Of a DNA stretch of 64,000 nucleotides, positions 1,786 to 62,408 are shown piece by piece. Position numbers and translations under genes: made by a program. This DNA comes from a candidate division WOR-3 bacterium UBA6260. GTDB taxonomy: Bacteria > Hydrothermota > 32-111. The notes below the pieces were generated by a model. The model was given only the letters and a program-made list of their open reading frames with translations, was not told where the DNA came from and made no database searches. The stretch's first letter is position 1; every line of letters starts with the position of its first letter. The stretch is taken from NCBI GenBank assembly GCA_002441125.1, contig DJVI01000003.1, forward strand, positions 153,383 through 217,382, given 5' to 3'.

Positions 1786-2959
1786 TCTTTATCCTCCTTA
1801 AAATTGAAAAAATCGAAAGATTAACAGATTTCTGTCTTACTATATCCCTGCTTCCATTAAAAACATACTTCTCAGTTTGTAATCTATTTTTGTAAAATGT
1901 TGAAATGAAAACTGTTCCAACAGGTTTTTCTATACTGCCACCTGAAGGACCAGCGATACCGGTTATTGAAACGGAAATATCAGATCTAAAAATTTTAGAA
2001 CAATTTTTTGCCATCATCTCTGCAACTTCAGAAGAAACTGCACCATATTTTTCTAACAGTTTTCTATCAACTTTCAGAATACTATTTTTTGAACCGTTCG
2101 AATAAACAACTACTCCACCAAGAAAAAATTTACTCGATCCTTCAATGTCTGTAAGGTATTTTGATAAAAGACCTCCAGTGCATGACTCTGCAACGGAGAG
2201 TTTTAAATTCTTCTTTTCCAACTCTCCTTTTAGATAAAGGTTTAAATCTTTAGCATCAGTTTCAAGAAATTTTTCTTTAAATTTATTCTTTAAAAATTTT
2301 AAAATTTCCTTTTTTGAAAAGTATAGATCAATAAAACCAAAGATTGGATAGAAGTGTATATCTGAAATAGTTTTTGAATCGAATTCTTCTTTCAGTAACT
2401 GATATATCTGAGTCTCTGTAGTATCAAAAATTTTTATATTATATTCTTTCCTAACTGCCCTGTTTGGAATAACCTTTTCAAGAACATTATCTGTTATCCA
2501 TTCAACCTCTCTCGTTACACCGGGTAATAAAAATATTTTTACACCTTTATAAACAATAGAATGGCAGAATGCAATTCCTGCGCCATTTTCAAATATTTTT
2601 GAACCATTTATAGTTAATGATTGTCTTATTAGAATTTTGTTATCAGCTTTCATCTTTTTGGAAATTTTTTCATATATCTTCTCAGAAAAAACAAGTTTTC
2701 TTTTTAAGGATTTCGCAACAGCACTTAATGTTATATCATCGACTGTTGGTCCCAAACCACCTGTTATAACTATAATTTTGGAATCTTTAATCGAAAGATG
2801 TAAAACTCTATTTATATTTTTAAAATTGTCTCCAACGAAATATTTGCCTGTTATGAAATATCCTTTTTTCAAAAGCAAATTTGAAATTATCGTTGAATTT
2901 CTTTCAACTATTCTGTTTTTTAAAATCTCATCCCCAACTATTATTATTGATGCTTTCAT
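1778..2959 (-). CDS. cinA: CinA-like competence/damage-inducible protein (MoCF-binding domain plus PncC NMN deamidase domain)
   Basis: IIIVGDEIL, ITGGLGPTVDDIT, LLPGV; C-terminal SVAESCTGG, GAVSSEVAEMMA, ITGIAGPSGG..KPVGTV. Confidence 0.92.
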   Translation of the reverse strand: MKASIIIVGDEILKNRIVERNSTIISNLLLKKGYFITGKYFVGDNFKNINRVLHLSIKDSKIIVITGGLGPTVDDITLSAVAKSLKRKLVFSEKIYEKISKKMKADNKILIRQSLTINGSKIFENGAGIAFCHSIVYKGVKIFLLPGVTREVEWITDNVLEKVIPNRAVRKEYNIKIFDTTETQIYQLLKEEFDSKTISDIHFYPIFGFIDLYFSKKEILKFLKNKFKEKFLETDAKDLNLYLKGELEKKNLKLSVAESCTGGLLSKYLTDIEGSSKFFLGGVVVYSNGSKNSILKVDRKLLEKYGAVSSEVAEMMAKNCSKIFRSDISVSITGIAGPSGGSIEKPVGTVFISTFYKNRLQTEKYVFNGSRDIVRQKSVNLSIFSILRRIKNE

Positions 2960-3396
2960 AAAATAAAAATGATAAAATGTGTTATAAGGTTTGCCAGAAT
3001 TCCTGCCATTATATCATCAAGAAGTATTCCAGTTGCACCTTCAATTTTTTCAAATCTATCGAGAAAAAAAATTTTTGAAATATCGAGGTATCTGAAGATC
3101 AGAATTGAAATAAATATAACTAAGAAATTTTTTGGTAAAAACATTATTGAAATTGTAGCTCCAACAAGTTCATCTATAACTATTCTTTTATCATCTCCAA
3201 AAAATTTTTTCGAGTTGGATATCGAAATATATGAAAGAAAAAGAATCAAAGAGAAAAAATCAAATAGAAGAGTGAAACTACCTTTGGTAAAAAAGAACCA
3301 TAAAAAAAGAAGAAGAAAAGAAACTATTGTTCCGCCACCTTTAATTTTTCCTATAAAAAAAACAGTATTGATAACAGAATAAAAGAATTCGATCAT
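2956..3396 (-). CDS. pgpA: Phosphatidylglycerophosphatase A
   Basis: GGGT, IVIDELVG, FRYLDISK, GILLDDIMAG motifs; membrane protein upstream of cinA. Confidence 0.85.
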   Translation of the reverse strand: MIEFFYSVINTVFFIGKIKGGGTIVSFLLLFLWFFFTKGSFTLLFDFFSLILFLSYISISNSKKFFGDDKRIVIDELVGATISIMFLPKNFLVIFISILIFRYLDISKIFFLDRFEKIEGATGILLDDIMAGILANLITHFIIFIL

Positions 3397-4142
3397 CTGT
3401 AAATCTCTGGAATCTTTTTAAGTTCTTTTATCTCTTCCTGTGAGAAAAGGGTAAGATAGTTTAAAATTATTATAATCCTTTTTTCGTTTTTAAAAATTCC
3501 AACACCTTCTATATATTCCAATTTATTTTCTGGAAGAAAAGGTGGAATACTTTTTATATCTGGTTTTTCAAGCTTAACTATTCCAATGAGTTTATCAACA
3601 TAAAAACCTATCCTAAGTTCGTCGAGTTTCATTATAACTATAGAGCCGTTTTCACTCCTCCTATTAACTTTCAACCCAAACTTTTCTCTAAGATCAAAAA
3701 GAGGAAGAAAACCTTCTTTGTCGTTTAAAACTCCAAAAAAACTTTTGCTTTTCATTCCAATATCCAAAGGATCCTTATATTTTATTATCTGCCTTACAAG
3801 GTCAGAATCAATTCCATACTCCTCTTCGTTCAATTTAAAAGAAACATACTCTTTCTCTTCTTCAGAATCATCTTCCCTTTTTAAAGAATTTTCATCTTTT
3901 GAAAAATACTCACTTTCAACTTTTTGCTCAGGATTTTCTCTCCCTTCCGAAAAATCATCTTTTAAAGGTTTTGAATTTTTTTCATCAACTTTCAGATCTT
4001 TTATCTCTTCTTTTTCAATTAACTTTTCATCTTCACTTTTTGTCACTTCTTTTCTTTCTTCAACTTTTTCTTTTTCCTTATCATCTTTACTTTTTGTTTT
4101 ACCAACATTGAAAAGAGATGAAAGATCAATTTTCTTTTTCAT
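3393..4142 (-). CDS. cheW: CheW-like coupling protein with a long acidic/lysine-rich N-terminal extension
   Basis: C-terminal ~150 aa: YVSFKLNEEEYGID..VRQII, GVLN..G.FLPLFDLREKFGL, IGFYVDKLIGI, YIEGVG; the first ~95 aa are E/K low complexity. Confidence 0.85.
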   Translation of the reverse strand: MKKKIDLSSLFNVGKTKSKDDKEKEKVEERKEVTKSEDEKLIEKEEIKDLKVDEKNSKPLKDDFSEGRENPEQKVESEYFSKDENSLKREDDSEEEKEYVSFKLNEEEYGIDSDLVRQIIKYKDPLDIGMKSKSFFGVLNDKEGFLPLFDLREKFGLKVNRRSENGSIVIMKLDELRIGFYVDKLIGIVKLEKPDIKSIPPFLPENKLEYIEGVGIFKNEKRIIIILNYLTLFSQEEIKELKKIPEIYR

Positions 4143-55002: not shown

Positions 55003-58000
55003 TCAACTATCTTTAGTCAACTCTTCCAATCTTAAAAAATTGTTATAATTTTTGAACTTTTCATAAAATTTTTCATAAATTTTCAAAGCCTCTTTCCTGA
55101 AATCTTCCCTCTTCGTCTTTTTGTAAAGAGTATAGTAAATTTCACCTTTTATACTCTCTTCATCATATTTAAAAATCAAATCTTTAACTTTATCTATAAA
55201 TTCATTCTCATCTTTTATTTCATAAAAAAGTTTCAAAAGAGTATATTTAACAAAATATTCCTCATATTCTTTTCTACTTTTTAAAAACTCTATCCCTTCA
55301 TCAAGAAGTTTTAAACCGTTTTCAAAGTCACCCATTTTAAGAAGGATTTCTCCTTTTAACAGCAAAGAATGATAGTAGTACTGTTTCAACTCAATTTCTT
55401 CCAAAAGTGATAAAGCTTCCTCTACATGTTTTAAAGAAAGTTCAAAAAGATTGTTTATAAAATATGTCTGTGATAGGTAATAGTTGTTTAAAGCTATACC
55501 CATCTTATCATCTATCTGTTTTGCAATTTCTATACTCTCTTTCAGGTATGAAACGGAAACATCAAAATCTCCAAGAAGTCCATAGAGTTGCCCCAAATTT
55601 GACAGAACGGTTCTTTTCCCTTTTCTATCCCCAAGATCTTCAGCTATCTTTAAAGATTCTTTATAGAATTCAGATTCTGCTACATAATCCCCTTTTATGT
55701 TGGCTATTCCTCCAAGGTTATTTAAAACTATCCTTATACTCTTTCTATCGTTCAACTCCCTCGAAATTTTAAGTTGTTTTGAAAAATAATCTTCAGCTTT
55801 TGTGTAATCTTTTAAGGAATAATAGAGAGCACCAAGATTTCCATAAAGATATGATAAAGGAGTTTTAGAGTTTACATCTTTCATAATTTTTTCGTTCTCA
55901 AGATAGTAAGATAATGCCTTTTCAAAATCCCCTTTCATCCAGTTTATAAGACCAAGATTTCCATAAACTGCATTTAAAGTTAAAAGTAGATTGTTCTTTT
56001 TGGCAACCTTTAAAACAACTTCATAATTTTTTACAGACTCATCGTAATCACCCATATCTTTGGCAATATTCCCTTTTGTTAAAAAAGCGTTAGCATAAGT
56101 TTCAGGATCACTATTTTCATCAACTATCTCTAAAATCTTCTCAACATTCTCCATAGCTTTTTTATATTCGTTCTTTCTCCACAATATTTGTCCCTTAATA
56201 CTCAAAATATCTGCTATTTTTTCTTTATCTTTGAACCTTACAAAAATTTCATAAGATTTATCAAGATATTTTTCACATTCTTCGTAAAATCCCATCTGGA
56301 AAAGAAGGTCACCATAATCTTTTAAAATTTCAGCTTTCAACTCATTTTCAGGATAATCAACGATTTCATTTAAGATCTGTTCATAATCTTTCTTAGCATC
56401 AATCCACATACCAAGTAACATTTCCATCCTTAAAAAATTTATTCTAATTGATAATTTTTCGGAAAAATCAAAAGCATAGTTTAAAGCTTTTTTATAAAAA
56501 TTCAAACCATCAGAGAAACGGAATTTTTTATGAGAATAATCACCAGATTTTCTATAAAAAATTTTTGCCTTTTCAAAATTTTCTCCTTTCTCATAATGGA
56601 AGGCTATGTCTTTAAACCTTTCCTCATCATTGATAAAGAGTTTTTCCATTACTTCACCAACAATCAGATGATACTCTTTCAACTTTTTTTTAAGTATCAT
56701 ATTGTATACTGTATCTTTTATAAGGGAGTGTTTGAATATGAGTTTAATCTCATTTATTTTCAATAGAATATTTTCCCTTGTTATCTTTTCTATACCTTCT
56801 TCAAAATCAGAAACATCAACAACCCTTTTTAAAACTTCATTTTCAACTTCGTAACCTATAACTGAAGATTTTTCAACCAAACTTTTCAGTTCAGCGTTCA
56901 ATCTGTCTATTCTTGCAATAATTATGGAACTTATTGTTGAAGGAATATTTTTAATCTCTTTGGATATCACATTCTTTCCGTTTTCATTTTTTATAAAATC
57001 GTTTTCAAGAAGATATATTGAAAACTGTTCAACATAGAATGGGTTACCTTCGGTTCTTTCAAAAATGAATCTCACAGTATCCTCTGATGGAGAAAAGATA
57101 AGCTGGTTTTCTATATAAGATTTACAACTCACATAATCAAAATTTTTAAGTTCAATCACTTGGACTGGAAATTTTTCATAAAGATTCAAAAGCTTTTTAC
57201 TCCCGTCATAATCGTACCTTGAAGTGAAAATTATCATAAATGGATAATTTTCAACCTCTCTTGAAAGTATCTCAAAAAACTGGTTACTCTTTTCATCCTG
57301 ATACTGAAGATCCTCTACGATTATAACCAAAGGTTTTTTCTGGCATAGAAATATAAAAAATTCTTTCAATGAAAAGAATATCTCTTCCTCTAAATTCTTC
57401 CTATTCAACTTATAAATGGCTGAATCCTGATCTACAAGGTTTAGCAAAAATTTAAAGGTTTCTTTTAAATTTTCTTTTGTTTTGCGATCTTCAAAAATCG
57501 TGTCAAAAATTTTTCTGTTCTCATTTTTTGAAAGAAACCTGTCCTGTTTAAAAAAATCGAACAAAAACCTTTTTATAGATGAGAACTCTTCTTTATCAAC
57601 ATTTTCGTTTTTGAAAATTAAAAACTGAAAATTCTCACTATTCCTTGAAACTATCTCAAAACAGATCCTTGATTTTCCAACACCAGCATCTCCAAAAATG
57701 TATACACATCCTCCATTTTTGCCTTCAGAAAGGAGTTTTAAAGAATTTTCAACTACTTCAATCTCTTTTTCCCTTCCAACTATCTCGTTTTCGAAATAAA
57801 TTTTTGTATCAAAAATCTCTTCATTTAAAACTTTGAAAATCTTTTCTTTTTCACTTTTTCCTTTTAACAACTTTTCTTTTTTAAAAACAGTTCTAAATGA
57901 AGTACCTAAAAATTCTTCGGTGAACCAATCCACACAAACCTCACCATAATCACTTTCAACCATTATCCTTGCGGATACATTCACTCTATCTCCCAAAACT

Positions 58001-58995
58001 GTATAGGTTGATCTTACCGGTGAACCTACATAACCTGCATAAACCTTACCATAAGTTAAGCCGCTTTTAATAAAATTTCTATATCTGTCGAGTTTCTTAT
58101 CATAAAAAAGCATCAAACCTCTTTTAAGATCATTCTCATAACTTTTGGGTGCACCAAAGATTATGAAAATTTTGCCTCCCTTATCTCCAAAATCCACAAG
58201 GTCAAAATAACCTTTATATTTTTTGGAAAGTTCAAAAACTGTTAGTAAAAACTCTTCCTGATCCTTTTCATCAACTCCATCAAAGGAAATGAACATTGAT
58301 GCAACATCCCTGAACTCTCCTCCAAACTCTTTCGGAAGATCTGTATATATAAAACTTTTCAAAATTTTTTCATCGATTTCTTCACTATTTAATTCACCTT
58401 CTTTTTTAAAAATATCTTTTTTACCATTATATTTGTAAACATCTTTAAAATTTGTAAAAAGTTCTTCTGAAAAAAATTTTTTTGCTTCAAGTGAAAAAAC
58501 CGCTTCATTTTCACCACAAAATTTTTCCATTTTTGCTGCAACATTTATAGGTTCACCTTTAAAATAATAAATTTTCTCCACATCTCCTAAAATTGCCCAT
58601 TCAAGATCCCCAAAGGAAACACCAATTTTAAAGGATAATTCAAATTCTCCATCTAAAGTCTTTATCCTCCCCTTCTCTTTTGAAAAGGCTAATATAGAAT
58701 CTACAATATCTATCAAACCACTGTAACCATCTTCCTTTATAACACCTGTAAAAGCATCTCCAGCAAAATTTAAAATATCCCCACCTTTCAAGTAAACAAT
58801 TTTTATCAGTTCTCCAAAAAATGAGTTTATAATTTCAGAAAGTGTTTCACTCCCTTTAAAATCATTTTTCATCAAATTTTCAGTAATGTTTGTGAAACCT
58901 TTTATGTCAACAAAAAAAACAAAAAACTCATCCTTTCCCTTTGGCTGGTTATTTCTTATTTTTTCAAAAATTAAATCAGGAATTATTTTAAACAT
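55003..58995 (-). CDS. Class III adenylate cyclase (tandem C1-C2) + P-loop NTPase + TPR; soluble-AC-like architecture
   Basis: C1 VDIKGFT and FAGDA; C2 GDKG, FGAP, YTVLGDRVNVSARIM; P-loop VGREKE..GDAGVGKSR; GNPFY; many TPRs. Confidence 0.9.
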   Translation of the reverse strand: MFKIIPDLIFEKIRNNQPKGKDEFFVFFVDIKGFTNITENLMKNDFKGSETLSEIINSFFGELIKIVYLKGGDILNFAGDAFTGVIKEDGYSGLIDIVDSILAFSKEKGRIKTLDGEFELSFKIGVSFGDLEWAILGDVEKIYYFKGEPINVAAKMEKFCGENEAVFSLEAKKFFSEELFTNFKDVYKYNGKKDIFKKEGELNSEEIDEKILKSFIYTDLPKEFGGEFRDVASMFISFDGVDEKDQEEFLLTVFELSKKYKGYFDLVDFGDKGGKIFIIFGAPKSYENDLKRGLMLFYDKKLDRYRNFIKSGLTYGKVYAGYVGSPVRSTYTVLGDRVNVSARIMVESDYGEVCVDWFTEEFLGTSFRTVFKKEKLLKGKSEKEKIFKVLNEEIFDTKIYFENEIVGREKEIEVVENSLKLLSEGKNGGCVYIFGDAGVGKSRICFEIVSRNSENFQFLIFKNENVDKEEFSSIKRFLFDFFKQDRFLSKNENRKIFDTIFEDRKTKENLKETFKFLLNLVDQDSAIYKLNRKNLEEEIFFSLKEFFIFLCQKKPLVIIVEDLQYQDEKSNQFFEILSREVENYPFMIIFTSRYDYDGSKKLLNLYEKFPVQVIELKNFDYVSCKSYIENQLIFSPSEDTVRFIFERTEGNPFYVEQFSIYLLENDFIKNENGKNVISKEIKNIPSTISSIIIARIDRLNAELKSLVEKSSVIGYEVENEVLKRVVDVSDFEEGIEKITRENILLKINEIKLIFKHSLIKDTVYNMILKKKLKEYHLIVGEVMEKLFINDEERFKDIAFHYEKGENFEKAKIFYRKSGDYSHKKFRFSDGLNFYKKALNYAFDFSEKLSIRINFLRMEMLLGMWIDAKKDYEQILNEIVDYPENELKAEILKDYGDLLFQMGFYEECEKYLDKSYEIFVRFKDKEKIADILSIKGQILWRKNEYKKAMENVEKILEIVDENSDPETYANAFLTKGNIAKDMGDYDESVKNYEVVLKVAKKNNLLLTLNAVYGNLGLINWMKGDFEKALSYYLENEKIMKDVNSKTPLSYLYGNLGALYYSLKDYTKAEDYFSKQLKISRELNDRKSIRIVLNNLGGIANIKGDYVAESEFYKESLKIAEDLGDRKGKRTVLSNLGQLYGLLGDFDVSVSYLKESIEIAKQIDDKMGIALNNYYLSQTYFINNLFELSLKHVEEALSLLEEIELKQYYYHSLLLKGEILLKMGDFENGLKLLDEGIEFLKSRKEYEEYFVKYTLLKLFYEIKDENEFIDKVKDLIFKYDEESIKGEIYYTLYKKTKREDFRKEALKIYEKFYEKFKNYNNFLRLEELTKDS

Positions 58996-59001
58996 AAGAA
59001 T

Positions 59002-59028
59002 AAAAAAGGGGTATCAAAAGATACCCCT
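59002..59028 (-). terminator. Intrinsic terminator
   Basis: Minus strand AGGGGTATC-TTTT-GATACCCCT followed by TTTTT. Confidence 0.8.
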
Positions 59029-59050
59029 AAAAATTTTCAATCGAAGCAGA

Positions 59051-59128
59051 TTATTTTTTCTTAGTTGTTTTTTTTGGTGCTGCTTTTTTTGTTGTTTTTT
59101 TTGCACAACCAGCTTTTTTTGTTGCCAC
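59051..59128 (-). CDS. 25-aa Lys/Ala/Thr-rich histone-H1-like micro-protein (not in ORF track)
   Basis: GTG start 4 nt after AGGAGG; MATKKAGCAKKTTKKAAPKKTTKKK*; own promoter and terminator. Confidence 0.7.
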   Translation of the reverse strand: MATKKAGCAKKTTKKAAPKKTTKKK

Positions 59129-59259
59129 ATTTCCTCCTTTCGTGACTTTTGGTTTATCTTTTACAAAAATTTGGTCAAAAAAATCAAACATCTAAATACC
59201 CTCTTATTTTGCTTAAAAATATTTTTTTCGGGAATTATTTTTTAACCTCATCGAGATTT

Positions 59260-59288
59260 ATTATATACTTTCAGGTTACAAAAGTCAA
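59260..59288 (-). promoter_or_regulatory. Sigma70 promoter of the micro-protein gene
   Basis: TTGACT (59288-59283)-N17-TATAAT (59265-59260). Confidence 0.7.
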
Positions 59289-60616
59289 TAGTTTATATCA
59301 TACTTTTTCATTTTATACCTTATAACTCTCTCTGAAGTTTTTAAATATAAAGCTGTGTCTTTAACGGAGTGGTTATTTTTTTCAAGGGCATCAATTATTA
59401 ATTTTTTTTCAAAATCTGAAACCATTTCCTCAAAAGAATCGAAATTTTTCTTTTCATTATTTTCTGTTTTTTCAACAACTATATCGTTCTCTTGAATAAT
59501 CTCACCATTCCCAAGTATAACAGCCCTTTGAATTATATTCTGCAACTCTCTAACATTTCCCGGATAAGAATAGCTTAACAGTTTTTCAAAAGCTTTTTTT
59601 GAAAAGTTTTTAAATCTTTTGTTATTCTCTTTAGAATATTTGTTCAAAAAAAATAGTGCCAACTTTTCAATATCCTCTTTCCTTTCTCTCAAAGGTGGAA
59701 TTTTTAAAGTTATAACATTCAATCTGAAATAAAGATCCTCTCTGAATTTTTTTTCCTCTATGAGTTTCAAAAGATCCTGATTGGTTGCTGAAATAACTCT
59801 AACATCAACTTTTATTCTCTCATTTCCTCCGACCCTTTCAAATTCTCTCTCCTGTAAAACTCTCAAAAGTTTAACTTGCATGTTCAACGATACATCTCCT
59901 ATTTCATCAAGGAATATGGTTCCCTTATGTGCAATTTCAAACCTTCCCTTTCTTCTTTCATATGCACCAGTGAAAGCGCCTTTTTCATAACCGAAAAGTT
60001 CAGTTTCAAGAAGATTCTCATTAAGTGCTCCACAGTTTACAGCAACAAAAAGTTTATCTTTTCTGCTACTGAAAGAATGGATCATCTTTGCTACCAGCTC
60101 TTTACCTGTTCCACTCTCACCAACAATAAGGATGTTAGCGTTTGAGTTAGCTATCTTTTTTACATTTTCAACAACTTCCTTCATCTTTTCAGACCCATAG
60201 ACGAATTCAGAGAATTCCTCCCTCTCTTTAAGCATCATATTTTCATTCTGAACATCTATTATCTTTTCAATCTTTTCTATCTTTATCTGGAGATCGTCGA
60301 GATTTATAGGTTTTTGGATATAATCATAGCCACCATTCTTTAAAATGTAAACCGAATCCTCAACAGAGGAATATGCTGTTATAAGTATAAAGAAAGTTTT
60401 CAAATTTTTTTCATTGATAAAATCGAGAATATCTTTGCCGCTTCCATCGTTTAGTTTCATATCGGAAATAACTATATCAAAACTTTTTTTGCTAATGAGT
60501 TCCTTTGCATTCTTAACAGAATCAGATTCACTAACTCTATGTTCAAGACCTTTTAAAAAATCGGACAGATTTTTTCTCTGTATCTTCTCATCCTCTACAA
60601 GAAGTATTTCAACCAT
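59285..60616 (-). CDS. Sigma54-dependent NtrC-family response regulator
   Basis: Receiver ILLVEDE/ISDMKL, GESGTGKELVA, GAFTGA, FLDEIGD, RVGG, FREDLYFRLNV, PGNVRELQN, Fis-type HTH. Confidence 0.96.
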   Translation of the reverse strand: MVEILLVEDEKIQRKNLSDFLKGLEHRVSESDSVKNAKELISKKSFDIVISDMKLNDGSGKDILDFINEKNLKTFFILITAYSSVEDSVYILKNGGYDYIQKPINLDDLQIKIEKIEKIIDVQNENMMLKEREEFSEFVYGSEKMKEVVENVKKIANSNANILIVGESGTGKELVAKMIHSFSSRKDKLFVAVNCGALNENLLETELFGYEKGAFTGAYERRKGRFEIAHKGTIFLDEIGDVSLNMQVKLLRVLQEREFERVGGNERIKVDVRVISATNQDLLKLIEEKKFREDLYFRLNVITLKIPPLRERKEDIEKLALFFLNKYSKENNKRFKNFSKKAFEKLLSYSYPGNVRELQNIIQRAVILGNGEIIQENDIVVEKTENNEKKNFDSFEEMVSDFEKKLIIDALEKNNHSVKDTALYLKTSERVIRYKMKKYDINY

Positions 60617-62408
60617 CTTTCATTTCCTCCATAAAAATTTTTATTTTTGTCCCAACCCCCTTTTCAGATTCAACTTCTATTTTACCTTTATGATCCTCTA
60701 TTATCCTTTTCGCTGTTGCCAAACCTATCCCGGAGCCATTCTCTTTTGTTGTATAGAAAAGATCAAAGATTTTTTCTTTCTGATCGTATTCCATTCCTAT
60801 ACCATGATCAATAATCTCTATTAAAACTTTTCCATCTTCAGAATCAACTTTTATTTCAACACTTTTTCCTTCAGTTGATGCTTCTATTCCATTCAAAACT
60901 ATATTTTTGAAAGCAATGTTCAACATCTGTCTATCACCAAATAAAAATTTATCACCTTCTGAAATAAACTTTATTCCGATTTTCCTTTCATCAAGCAAAA
61001 TTTTTAGTGATCTTATTATTTCCTCAAAAGTTTCCCTCAAGGAGACCTTTTCAAACCTGTACTGATAAGGTTTTGAAAATCTTGTAAACTCTATTATCCT
61101 TTTATTCATTCTTTCAACTTCATCGAGAGCTTCCTTCAACATAACTTTTTCATCACCATCAAAAAAGTTCTTTCTCATCATCCTTTGCAAGATAATAGAT
61201 ATACCATTCAATGGATTTTTTAACTCATGAGAAATTCTGAAAGTCATTTCTCCAAGCCGTGATTGGAATTCCATCCTTTTCTTTTCCTCTTTCAAATTTT
61301 CAAATTCAGTAATATCTTTTATATATAGAACCAATTTTTTGTTATCCGATGTTTTAGTAGATGAAACGAGAAATTTATAATTTTTATGAATGACCTGCAA
61401 ATCTTTTACCTCTTTCAAATTCTCAGCAATATCTTTTATTCCTTCTATTTCAAGCAAAGAAAATTTGAATTTCTTTTCAAATCTGTTATCGAAACTTTTA
61501 ATCTCTCTATCATCGATATTCTCAATAAAAACAAACTCGTCAAGAAGTGACATTATCTTCAATTTTTCGCTACTCTCTTCCAAAAGTTTTTGTGAAAGTC
61601 GAATGTTGTTGGAGTAGAAAGATAAAATAGCTATCAAAAGAACAAAAAGTGAAAAAGTAAAAAACAGATTGGTCAAAAAATTTATCATGTTCCCTTTCTT
61701 TAACCTATTAATCTCATCCGTTCCAAATCCTACCCTTAAAAGTAGATTTTCATCTTTAACAGGTTTTATTATCTCAAAAACTTTCCTGCCTTCAAAATAA
61801 TGTATCCTGAAAGTATCAACCCTTTCAAAAAATGAATACATTAAAAGAGAGTCAAAAAAGATACTTTTCATCTGATTAACATTGAATGAAGCGTAAATTA
61901 TACCGAAATTATCCTGAAAAAGAATGTATTCTATTTCCGGTAAGGATGAAAGATCGTCCAAATAGTTTTTAAGACCACCCTCTTTCAAAAGATTTCTAAA
62001 ATTATCTTTCGATCTTGATATCCTGTACAAACCTTTTTGATCCTTTTCATAAATTACAAAAGAATCCTTGTTATAATTTTCAGAAAAAGAGAAACCTTCA
62101 GTGAAAAGACCCCCTTTAAAAAGGTTTTTAAAATTATTTTTATATAAGTATTTTTCTTTATTTTTTTCAACATCGAAAACCATCTCGTTAAAAATGAATT
62201 TCTCTATGGAAACTATATTCTGTGAAACATTTTTATATGTTTTGCCTATAATATCTGTTATGATTTCAGATCTTGTTAAAAATTCTTTTTCAAGTGATCT
62301 TTTTTTTGAAATGAATTCAAATGTTTGAAAGAATATCAAAACCAAAAGTATAAGAAAAAGTAAAAGGGTTTGAAAATTTTTTATGTTTAAAATATTTTTC
62401 GATTTCAT
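60609..62408 (-). CDS. Membrane sensor histidine kinase
   Basis: Two TM helices, H-box SHELKNPL, N-box NIVLNGIEA, DHGIG, FYTTKENGSGIGLA. Confidence 0.93.
   Translation of the reverse strand: MKSKNILNIKNFQTLLLFLILLVLIFFQTFEFISKKRSLEKEFLTRSEIITDIIGKTYKNVSQNIVSIEKFIFNEMVFDVEKNKEKYLYKNNFKNLFKGGLFTEGFSFSENYNKDSFVIYEKDQKGLYRISRSKDNFRNLLKEGGLKNYLDDLSSLPEIEYILFQDNFGIIYASFNVNQMKSIFFDSLLMYSFFERVDTFRIHYFEGRKVFEIIKPVKDENLLLRVGFGTDEINRLKKGNMINFLTNLFFTFSLFVLLIAILSFYSNNIRLSQKLLEESSEKLKIMSLLDEFVFIENIDDREIKSFDNRFEKKFKFSLLEIEGIKDIAENLKEVKDLQVIHKNYKFLVSSTKTSDNKKLVLYIKDITEFENLKEEKKRMEFQSRLGEMTFRISHELKNPLNGISIILQRMMRKNFFDGDEKVMLKEALDEVERMNKRIIEFTRFSKPYQYRFEKVSLRETFEEIIRSLKILLDERKIGIKFISEGDKFLFGDRQMLNIAFKNIVLNGIEASTEGKSVEIKVDSEDGKVLIEIIDHGIGMEYDQKEKIFDLFYTTKENGSGIGLATAKRIIEDHKGKIEVESEKGVGTKIKIFMEEMKDG

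Follow-up and report, generated by a model that had tools for sequence, protein, structure and literature searches.

A predicted lysine-rich small protein encoded directly upstream of a class III cyclase gene in candidate division WOR-3 bacteria

What protein, if any, is encoded by the short stretch between two signalling genes at positions 59,002 to 59,288 of the window, the 64,000-nucleotide (nt) stretch of contig DJVI01000003.1 from the candidate division WOR-3 bacterium UBA6260 that was analyzed here? A preliminary description had read this locus as an unannotated transcription unit for a histone H1-like peptide of 25 amino acids (aa), with a TTGACT-N17-TATAAT promoter, a leader of ∼125 nt, AGGAGG as Shine-Dalgarno element, a GTG start codon, a TAA stop codon and a 9-bp terminator. 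Each of these elements is found on the minus strand, and the 25-residue reading, (M)ATKKAGCAKKTTKKAAPKKTTKKK, is present with its 11 Lys and one Cys. An in-frame ATG is, however, located at 59191, 63 nt 5′ of the GTG at 59128, and the same frame runs uninterrupted from it to give an open reading frame (ORF) of 46 aa that ends at the TAA at 59053–59051. The boundary of the 25-aa ORF was therefore misplaced, since both the ATG at 59191 and the 21 additional residues that it brings are conserved, and the supposed leader consists of ∼62 nt of untranslated sequence followed by 63 nt of coding sequence. AGGAGG is present as described but constitutes codons for Lys-Gly-Gly. It is the 46-aa protein, and not the 25-aa peptide, that sequence comparison identifies as the conserved product, and the stretch very probably holds a genuine protein-coding small gene.

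Nor is the locus unannotated, because the 46-aa ORF has already been called in public records. The exact protein is held in public protein collections from eight contigs (NCBI, IMG, ENA, and Logan), and the same collections hold no entry for the 25-aa form. Relatives recovered by word-indexed and profile searches are all 46 aa in length, annotated as "hypothetical protein" and encoded in candidate division WOR-3 genomes (e.g., MEO0236869.1). One further, more distant relative, P0012 (42 aa, 67% identity; locus L011), emerged when 1.84 billion representatives were searched exhaustively by profile. Walking from orthologues of the cyclase encoded immediately downstream (38–40% identity) led to a second clade (L020, L026, L027, and L028; hereafter clade 2), where a Lys-rich small ORF lies directly upstream of the cyclase gene on the same strand at each locus, encoding 59 aa in L020 and L027, 43 aa in L028 and 67 aa in L026. 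The comparison thus covers 11 loci from three lineages (the window, L001, L005, L008, L009, L011, L013, L020, L026, L027, and L028).

In a DNA alignment of the relatives' loci, the ATG and the sequence downstream of it are conserved and the ∼60 nt directly 5′ diverge. Variable alignment columns number 7, 3, and 16 at the first, second and third codon positions, respectively, and the position of the stop codon is fixed, the codon itself being TAA, TAG, or TGA. The ratio of non-synonymous to synonymous differences (pN/pS; Nei-Gojobori counts) is ∼0.15–0.3 and alike for codons 1–21 and 22–46; for the N-terminal part, or head, of the clade 2 proteins it is 0.2–0.4. ATG, frame and stop position are kept in all 11 loci, and the length differences between lineages (42, 43, 46, 59, and 67 aa) are in-frame. 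Translation of the small ORF is indicated by these evolutionary signatures. The synonymous-biased conservation that had been suggested as a check is seen, albeit across 46 codons rather than 25, and the frameshifts or stops in homologues, with conservation of the RNA alone, that had been named as grounds for abandoning a coding reading are not what the homologues contain, as their indels are in-frame and the stop position is kept.

Locus L011 lacks the internal AGGAGG and carries GTA in place of the GTG (AAAGGGAAAAAAGTA), yet keeps the upstream ATG and the head (MFDFVDKFFV…ITKG), so that the 46-aa protein must be regarded as the conserved product. The promoter of L011 reads TTGATT-16-TATAAT, its terminator is retained, and its main ATG is preceded by a better Shine-Dalgarno sequence, AAAGGTG. 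Identity between the window lineage and L011 is 67% for the small protein, 72% for the response regulator and 51% for the cyclase. The case illustrates how a Gly-Gly codon pair mimicking a ribosome-binding site can lead a tool-free reading to pick the wrong start codon. Coordinates of the features discussed here and below are collected in Table 1.

Table 1. Positions in the window of the small gene, its predicted expression signals and the downstream cyclase gene
Feature	Position	Strand	Description
-35 hexamer TTGACT	59283..59288	minus	TTGAC/TTGAT kept in 11/11 loci
-10 hexamer TATAAT	59260..59265	minus	17-nt spacer; TATAAT or TAAAAT in every relative
Candidate leaderless upstream ORF	59213..59251	minus	ATG 59251-59249, 8 nt past -10; 12 codons, MRLKNNSRKKYF; TAA 59215-59213
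TTCCC island in 5′ leader	59230..59234	minus	Invariant in 7 loci (window lineage and L011); flanks diverge
Weak Shine-Dalgarno element GAGGG	59199..59203	minus	7 nt before ATG 59191
Small gene	59051..59191	minus	Predicted 46-aa product MFDFFDQIFVKDKPKVTKGGNVATKKAGCAKKTTKKAAPKKTTKKK, stop inside coordinates; 5.09 kDa, pI 10.3, 15 Lys, 3 Asp
N-terminal module, residues 1-21	59129..59191	minus	Conserved in three lineages; predicted helix at 3-11, then K-x-T/K-K-G-G; pN/pS 0.1-0.4
Internal AGGAGG-N4-GTG	59126..59138	minus	AGGAGG 59138-59133, GTG 59128; encodes K18-G19-G20-N21-V22
Polycationic tail, residues 22-46	59054..59128	minus	Lys/Thr/Ala/Pro-rich; motif TKKAGC-x-KK; predicted coil
Intrinsic terminator	58997..59028	minus	9-bp stem AGGGGTATC/GATACCCCT, 4-nt loop, T run
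Cyclase gene	55003..58995	minus	1330 aa; two class III cyclase domains, AAA_16 (STAND), TPR repeats

The signals that flank the gene are likewise conserved. A pattern scan of 1.3 kb detected 10 promoter-like sites (5.1 ± 1.8 in shuffled sequences), of which the promoter of the small gene, with 11 of 12 consensus positions matched, ranks first; its -35 hexamer overlaps the TGA stop codon (59287–59285) of the sigma-54 response-regulator gene upstream, and a promoter is conserved in 11/11 loci. The terminator stem (59028–59007; 9 pairs, 5 of them G-C) is the sole terminator-like hairpin found in the scan, against 0.3 in shuffles. It is kept in the window lineage and in L011, and the hairpin of clade 2 is different, being G+C-rich and without a T run. 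Because promoter, frame and hairpin are all kept in relatives, the three exceed chance. The small gene would be transcribed from its own sigma-70-type promoter and its transcript closed by the intrinsic terminator; no sigma-54 promoter was found before the small gene, even though a sigma-54 activator gene adjoins it. In this respect the preliminary description was well founded, as an own transcription unit for a small, very basic, Lys-rich protein with a tail free of acidic residues is supported and conserved.

Between promoter and small gene, an ATG is present 7–8 nt past the -10 hexamer in all 11 loci, a distance that puts it right where transcription is expected to begin, or adjacent to that point. 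The frame that it opens extends for 12–30 codons and stops close to the main ATG, from 21 nt ahead of it to 8 nt past it, the two overlapping as TGATG in three clade 2 loci; the other two frames across the region contain 1–5 stops. Shuffling gives a joint chance of 2.4e-4 for this layout over four lineages. The encoded peptide is not conserved (pN/pS 0.5 to >1), and a leaderless regulatory upstream ORF is probable, of which the act of translation, rather than the peptide, would matter. The remainder of the ∼62-nt leader appears to be unstructured. Its fold is not significant relative to shuffles (z = -1.18), the alignment fold yields -0.08 kcal/mol with no compensatory pair and no covariation, and no supported pairing partner for the TTCCC island is found in that fold. 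Nothing in Rfam 15 reaches its gathering threshold, the best overlapping model being L20_leader (22.1 bits vs. 58.7). A riboswitch or other structured leader is rejected in view of the absent fold and the lack of an Rfam family match, and the suggestion that a long leader might be regulatory or make the transcript a dual-function small RNA (sRNA) finds no structure, in single-sequence or alignment folds, to rest on. An AAGG/AGGA/AGGTG element is found 5–12 nt before the main ATG in 11/11 loci, and a comparable Shine-Dalgarno element precedes about half of the long ORFs of the window.

The predicted protein has a mass of 5089 Da and a net charge of +12, and contains neither Arg nor Glu. Its head consists of a short aromatic/acidic segment, MFDFFDQIFV, followed by K-V-T-K-G-G, and joint alignment of the family gives the head pattern M-F-x-[FY]-[FV]-[DE]…K-x-x-x-[VIL]-[TK]-K-G-[GK]-x-[VM]. 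AlphaFold2, supplied with 8 and then 11 sequences, places a helix at residues 3–11 or 4–11 and coil elsewhere, with low confidence (pLDDT 57–58). The tail is built of KK-x-x repeats in variable number. Both its length and the Cys segment drift between lineages (42–67 aa in total), the Cys segment being optional: the window lineage carries a single Cys, three clade 2 loci carry C-x-C-x-C, and L028 lacks Cys altogether. Dimerization through the Cys, proposed as a core feature, is therefore unlikely, given that L028 has no Cys and other members have three. The Lys richness is not an A+T artefact, as it persists at a locus of 40% G+C. Two further readings of the sequence were tried and rejected: A-G-C as a lipobox, since there is no signal peptide, and the head as a copy or mimic of the cyclase N-terminus (MFDFF-DQIFVK vs. 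MFKIIPDLIFEK), for which shuffling gave p = 0.07–0.7 in seven genomes.

Searches of Pfam (E up to 10), NCBIfam and PDB sequences with five family members gave no match, and the small ribosomal proteins (bTHX, bS21, bS22, bL37, and others) are likewise without a Pfam, NCBIfam or PDB-sequence match to the family. Membership in the H1, Hc1, Hc2 or ribosomal-protein families is rejected on these grounds, and the weak library matches that were seen are far below cut-offs (Spore_YhcN_YlaJ, E = 0.017; Rv3852_fam, E = 6–10). No paralogue of the small protein is encoded within the 64-kb window. Profile searches found close relatives only and missed clade 2, and scans of the collections by pattern likewise returned close relatives only. 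That clade 2 was missed demonstrates that homology searches are insensitive here, owing to low-complexity filtering and the short length of the protein, and the family is probably more widespread than these searches show. As far as sequence can tell, this small family, which no database names, occurs only in a few uncultured bacteria of the WOR-3 type, a group from which one strain has been brought into culture (PMC12285271). Annotation of very small proteins is incomplete, and in uncultured phyla they have almost never been studied; the present family is under purifying selection without having a name in any database.

The small gene is situated immediately upstream of the cyclase gene in 11/11 loci. 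Since this adjacency stays while the upstream neighbor changes (a response regulator in the window lineage, DUF2207 or ROK in clade 2), the small gene tracks the cyclase, whose homologues include the vertebrate soluble adenylyl cyclase (sAC). No such small ORF is found upstream of cyclase homologues of ≤35% identity in the loci examined, and in none of 67 cyclase homologues is the small-protein module fused to the cyclase. The cyclase ATG of the window lineage (58995) lies 12 nt past the terminator stem, and expression of the cyclase in this lineage needs read-through of the terminator, as the gene has neither a promoter nor a Shine-Dalgarno element of its own. The clade 2 cyclase genes have their own TTGATT-N16-TATAAT promoter past the hairpin (3967–4003 in L020; ∼2467–2503 in L026, L027, and L028), with the ATG exactly 6 nt past the -10, which implies a leaderless cyclase mRNA. 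At L008 (3142–3778) the cyclase orthologue is a pseudogene, in which the ATG has become ATT, a frameshift and an in-frame stop have arisen, and the catalytic FVDIKGFT motif is altered.

On the other side of the small gene in the window (59285–62408, minus strand), a histidine kinase gene (599 aa) and the sigma-54-dependent response-regulator gene (443 aa) are located directly upstream and overlap by 8 nt; the window lineage retains the kinase-regulator-small gene-cyclase block. Other genes intervene at L020, where the kinase and regulator genes are found ∼2 kb 5′ of the small gene. Also in L020, ∼1 kb of repeated units (2430–3500) separates a truncated DUF2207-like ORF from the small gene, and the repeated small ORFs MIKRRSGVCEPTL and MIHESYKSARTL recur there; these may represent a repeat array or mobile remnants.

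The most likely mode of action of such a protein can be outlined as follows. A transcript from its own promoter, with an unstructured leader that includes a weak Shine-Dalgarno element and, probably, an upstream ORF that is short and leaderless, would yield a protein whose disordered tail may bind a polyanion electrostatically, whether DNA, RNA or the ribosome, polyphosphate, or an acidic membrane, and whose conserved head may provide a specific protein contact or self-association. Chances for polyanion binding by the tail appear evenly balanced, and the gene model and the binding mechanism taken jointly stand at about even odds too; for a predicted basic protein of this kind, binding to the nucleoid, RNA or polyphosphate is plausible. 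A functional tie of the small gene to the cyclase-STAND-TPR protein, to which the persistence of the adjacency at deep divergence points, is possible but rather doubtful. Distinctly unlikely is a more elaborate scheme, under which the micro-protein would be a dedicated adaptor of the sAC-like cyclase, its head docking on the TPR/STAND sensor and its tail reporting on, or tethering the enzyme to, a polyanion (nucleoid, RNA, or polyphosphate) and so coupling cAMP synthesis to it, at a dose set by the leaderless upstream ORF terminating at the main start codon and by an internal ribosome-binding site giving a competing tail-only isoform. If the link to the cyclase were functional, cAMP signalling would have a first known case of coupling to a genetically encoded polycation, and a handle would be gained on what bacterial relatives of sAC sense; without such a link, a stand-alone lysine-rich micro-protein with a putative role at the nucleoid, ribosome or polyphosphate would be left.

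Several observations weigh against this outline. The family is very narrow: a set of 5.8 billion proteins contained 5 clusters of it, and a set of 1.84 billion contained 2 representatives. Nucleoid or ribosomal proteins of general function are seldom so restricted. Searches of Pfam, NCBIfam and PDB yielded no homologue with a known function, and confidence in the structural model is low, at the pLDDT values given above. Two sludge sequencing runs filed as "METAGENOMIC RNA-Seq", the RNA nature of which is uncertain, contributed a few read-length contigs of depth 2–3 that are no denser over the small gene than over neighboring genes, and no match to the locus was contained in the metatranscriptome of a hot spring, which belonged to a study that had yielded a relative. 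With respect to the cyclase, the small ORF of L008 is intact, with conservative changes, beside the pseudogene, which disfavors an obligatory partnership and indicates that, in that strain at least, the small protein is useful even when the cyclase is lost; inherited synteny could by itself account for the conserved adjacency.

Other explanations of the locus differ chiefly in what they take to be the product. Translation from GTG 59128 might yield the 25-aa tail-only peptide, either in place of the 46-aa form or alongside it as a second isoform arising from internal initiation. AGGAGG-N4-GTG is present in the window lineage, with a 4-nt spacing that other genes of the window also use (AGGAGGAAAA-ATG), and in clade 2 the homologous codon 22 is an ATG preceded by AGGAGG-N4, at which the public gene call of L026 begins; third-position variation is lower at codons 15–26 than elsewhere (1/12 vs. 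15/34, p = 0.035, post hoc). Against this stand the loss of both AGGAGG and start codon in L011, the purifying selection that each of the three lineages shows on the 21 upstream codons, and the retention in 11/11 loci of the upstream ATG with its Shine-Dalgarno element. As an extra isoform in some lineages the peptide is unlikely, and as sole product it is exceedingly improbable. The public call of L026 (2252–2392; 46 aa) starts at the internal ATG behind AGGAGG, and the in-frame conserved head begins 63 nt 5′ of the called start, for a total of 67 aa; the NCBI record behind L020 carries no call for the small gene. That the conserved entity is a non-coding or dual-function sRNA rather than a protein would fit a discrete ∼250-nt unit with promoter and terminator, but is exceedingly improbable in view of codon-phased substitutions, a fixed stop position occupied by three different stop codons, in-frame indels, a fold no better than shuffles without covariation, and the lack of an Rfam family match.

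A different proposal makes translation of the small ORF a cis-acting device: ribosomes on its many AAA Lys codons would decide whether the terminator is read through towards the cyclase, and the peptide would be functionless. The position of the window-lineage cyclase ATG just past the terminator, with no promoter or Shine-Dalgarno element of its own, does call for read-through, runs of A7–A8 occur within the small ORF, and two read-length contigs cross the terminator. Such an attenuator remains quite improbable, as purifying selection acts on the amino-acid sequence over the entire ORF, no antiterminator alternative is detected (z = -1.18 for the whole transcript; alignment fold ∼0 kcal/mol), the stop codon lies 22 nt ahead of the hairpin, clade 2 keeps the small gene although its cyclase has its own promoter and its hairpin no T run, and the small gene of L008 is intact beside a pseudogene. 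A transcription-attenuation leader peptide in the strict sense requires mutually exclusive terminator and antiterminator hairpins, of which only the terminator is predicted. The small ribosome-associated proteins bTHX, bS22, and bL37 are also small and basic, and the product might by analogy be a lineage-specific ribosomal component rather than a nucleoid protein. Its size, charge, disorder and strong constitutive-type promoter would suit such a role, which is nevertheless improbable considering that ribosomal protein families and PDB chains, including those of ribosome structures, gave no match, that the distribution is narrow and the genomic context one of signalling rather than translation genes, and that tail length and Cys content vary. 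A membrane-active peptide (a type I toxin, an exported cationic peptide or the precursor of a double-glycine-leader bacteriocin) is very unlikely. The aromatic N-terminus with a polybasic tail behind it is reminiscent of membrane-targeting sequences, K-G-G occupies residues 18–20, and Rfam fstAT is matched at chance level (E = 4.2), but the hydrophobic stretch spans only ∼10 residues with 2–3 acidic ones, there is no transmembrane helix or signal peptide, GG is GK in L011, the small gene of the window lineage is flanked by the histidine kinase, sigma-54 regulator and cyclase genes with no transporter, peptidase or modification gene adjoining, and neither a conserved antisense promoter nor an antisense RNA was detected. 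Two specific classes were rejected: type I toxins (Fst, Hok, TisB) depend on a hydrophobic helix of ∼20 residues and an antisense RNA, neither of which is seen here, and fstAT scores 18.7 bits against a cut-off of 72; double-glycine bacteriocin or RiPP precursors have a conserved GG with hydrophobic residues at -4, -7, and -12 and a C39-peptidase transporter or modification enzyme, a combination that the locus lacks, L011 having GK. The 46-aa protein with a conserved head and polycationic tail is accordingly retained as the preferred reading.

In its layout the locus recalls two regulatory arrangements. As in trpL, hisL, and thrL, a terminator and a downstream gene follow a short ORF in which one amino acid is abundant; unlike them, the small peptide is under purifying selection, there is no antiterminator, the downstream gene does not belong to the lysine pathway, and the small ORF is kept where the terminator has no T run. 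The RRNPP pairs (Phr-Rap, NprX-NprR, and PapR-PlcR) consist of a small peptide gene beside the gene for a TPR receptor, and the retention of the small gene beside a large TPR-containing signalling protein is reminiscent of them, which may serve only as a lead to how the pair works. The small protein differs in having no signal peptide or export signal, in being encoded upstream rather than downstream, and in its neighbor, a cyclase-STAND protein that does not belong to the RRNPP regulators.

With respect to the protein itself, kinship to histone H1, Hc1, and Hc2, which the preliminary description had invoked, finds no Pfam, NCBIfam or PDB match, and the resemblance to H1 is one of composition only. 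Linker histones H1/H5 (PF00538) are defined by a globular winged-helix domain of ∼75 residues, whereas the small protein has 46 residues in all and one short AlphaFold2 helix. The Pseudomonas protein AlgP, an H1-like KPAA-repeat protein, spaces polyphosphate granules (PMC9239181). Like AlgP and the C-terminal tail of eukaryotic H1, the small protein has a disordered polycationic tail rich in Lys, Ala, Pro, and Thr that could bind DNA or polyphosphate; it is unlike them in having no KPAA repeat, no globular H1 domain, only ∼25 tail residues and no detected homology, and assignment to the AlgP/PhaF type was rejected because the tail, KKAGCAKKTTKKAAPKKTTKKK, contains one Pro and no KPAA or AAKP unit. 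Chlamydial Hc1 (HctA; PF07432) and Hc2 (HctB; PF07382) share with it a very basic, Lys/Ala-rich low complexity and a tail of short KK-x-x units. Variation in the length of Hc2 by repeat units has been described (PMC2848022), and the clade 2 tails likewise vary in length by repeat units (43, 59, and 67 aa). Hc1 and Hc2 are, however, 3–5 times longer, and neither the Hc1 N-terminal domain nor the Hc2 array of Lys-rich pentamers was matched in the profile searches. The small protein is set apart by its conserved, non-repeat aromatic/acidic head and by its fixed site upstream of a cyclase gene, and appears from sequence to represent a new, unnamed family of lysine-rich small basic proteins, distinct from the H1, Hc1, Hc2, and ribosomal families.

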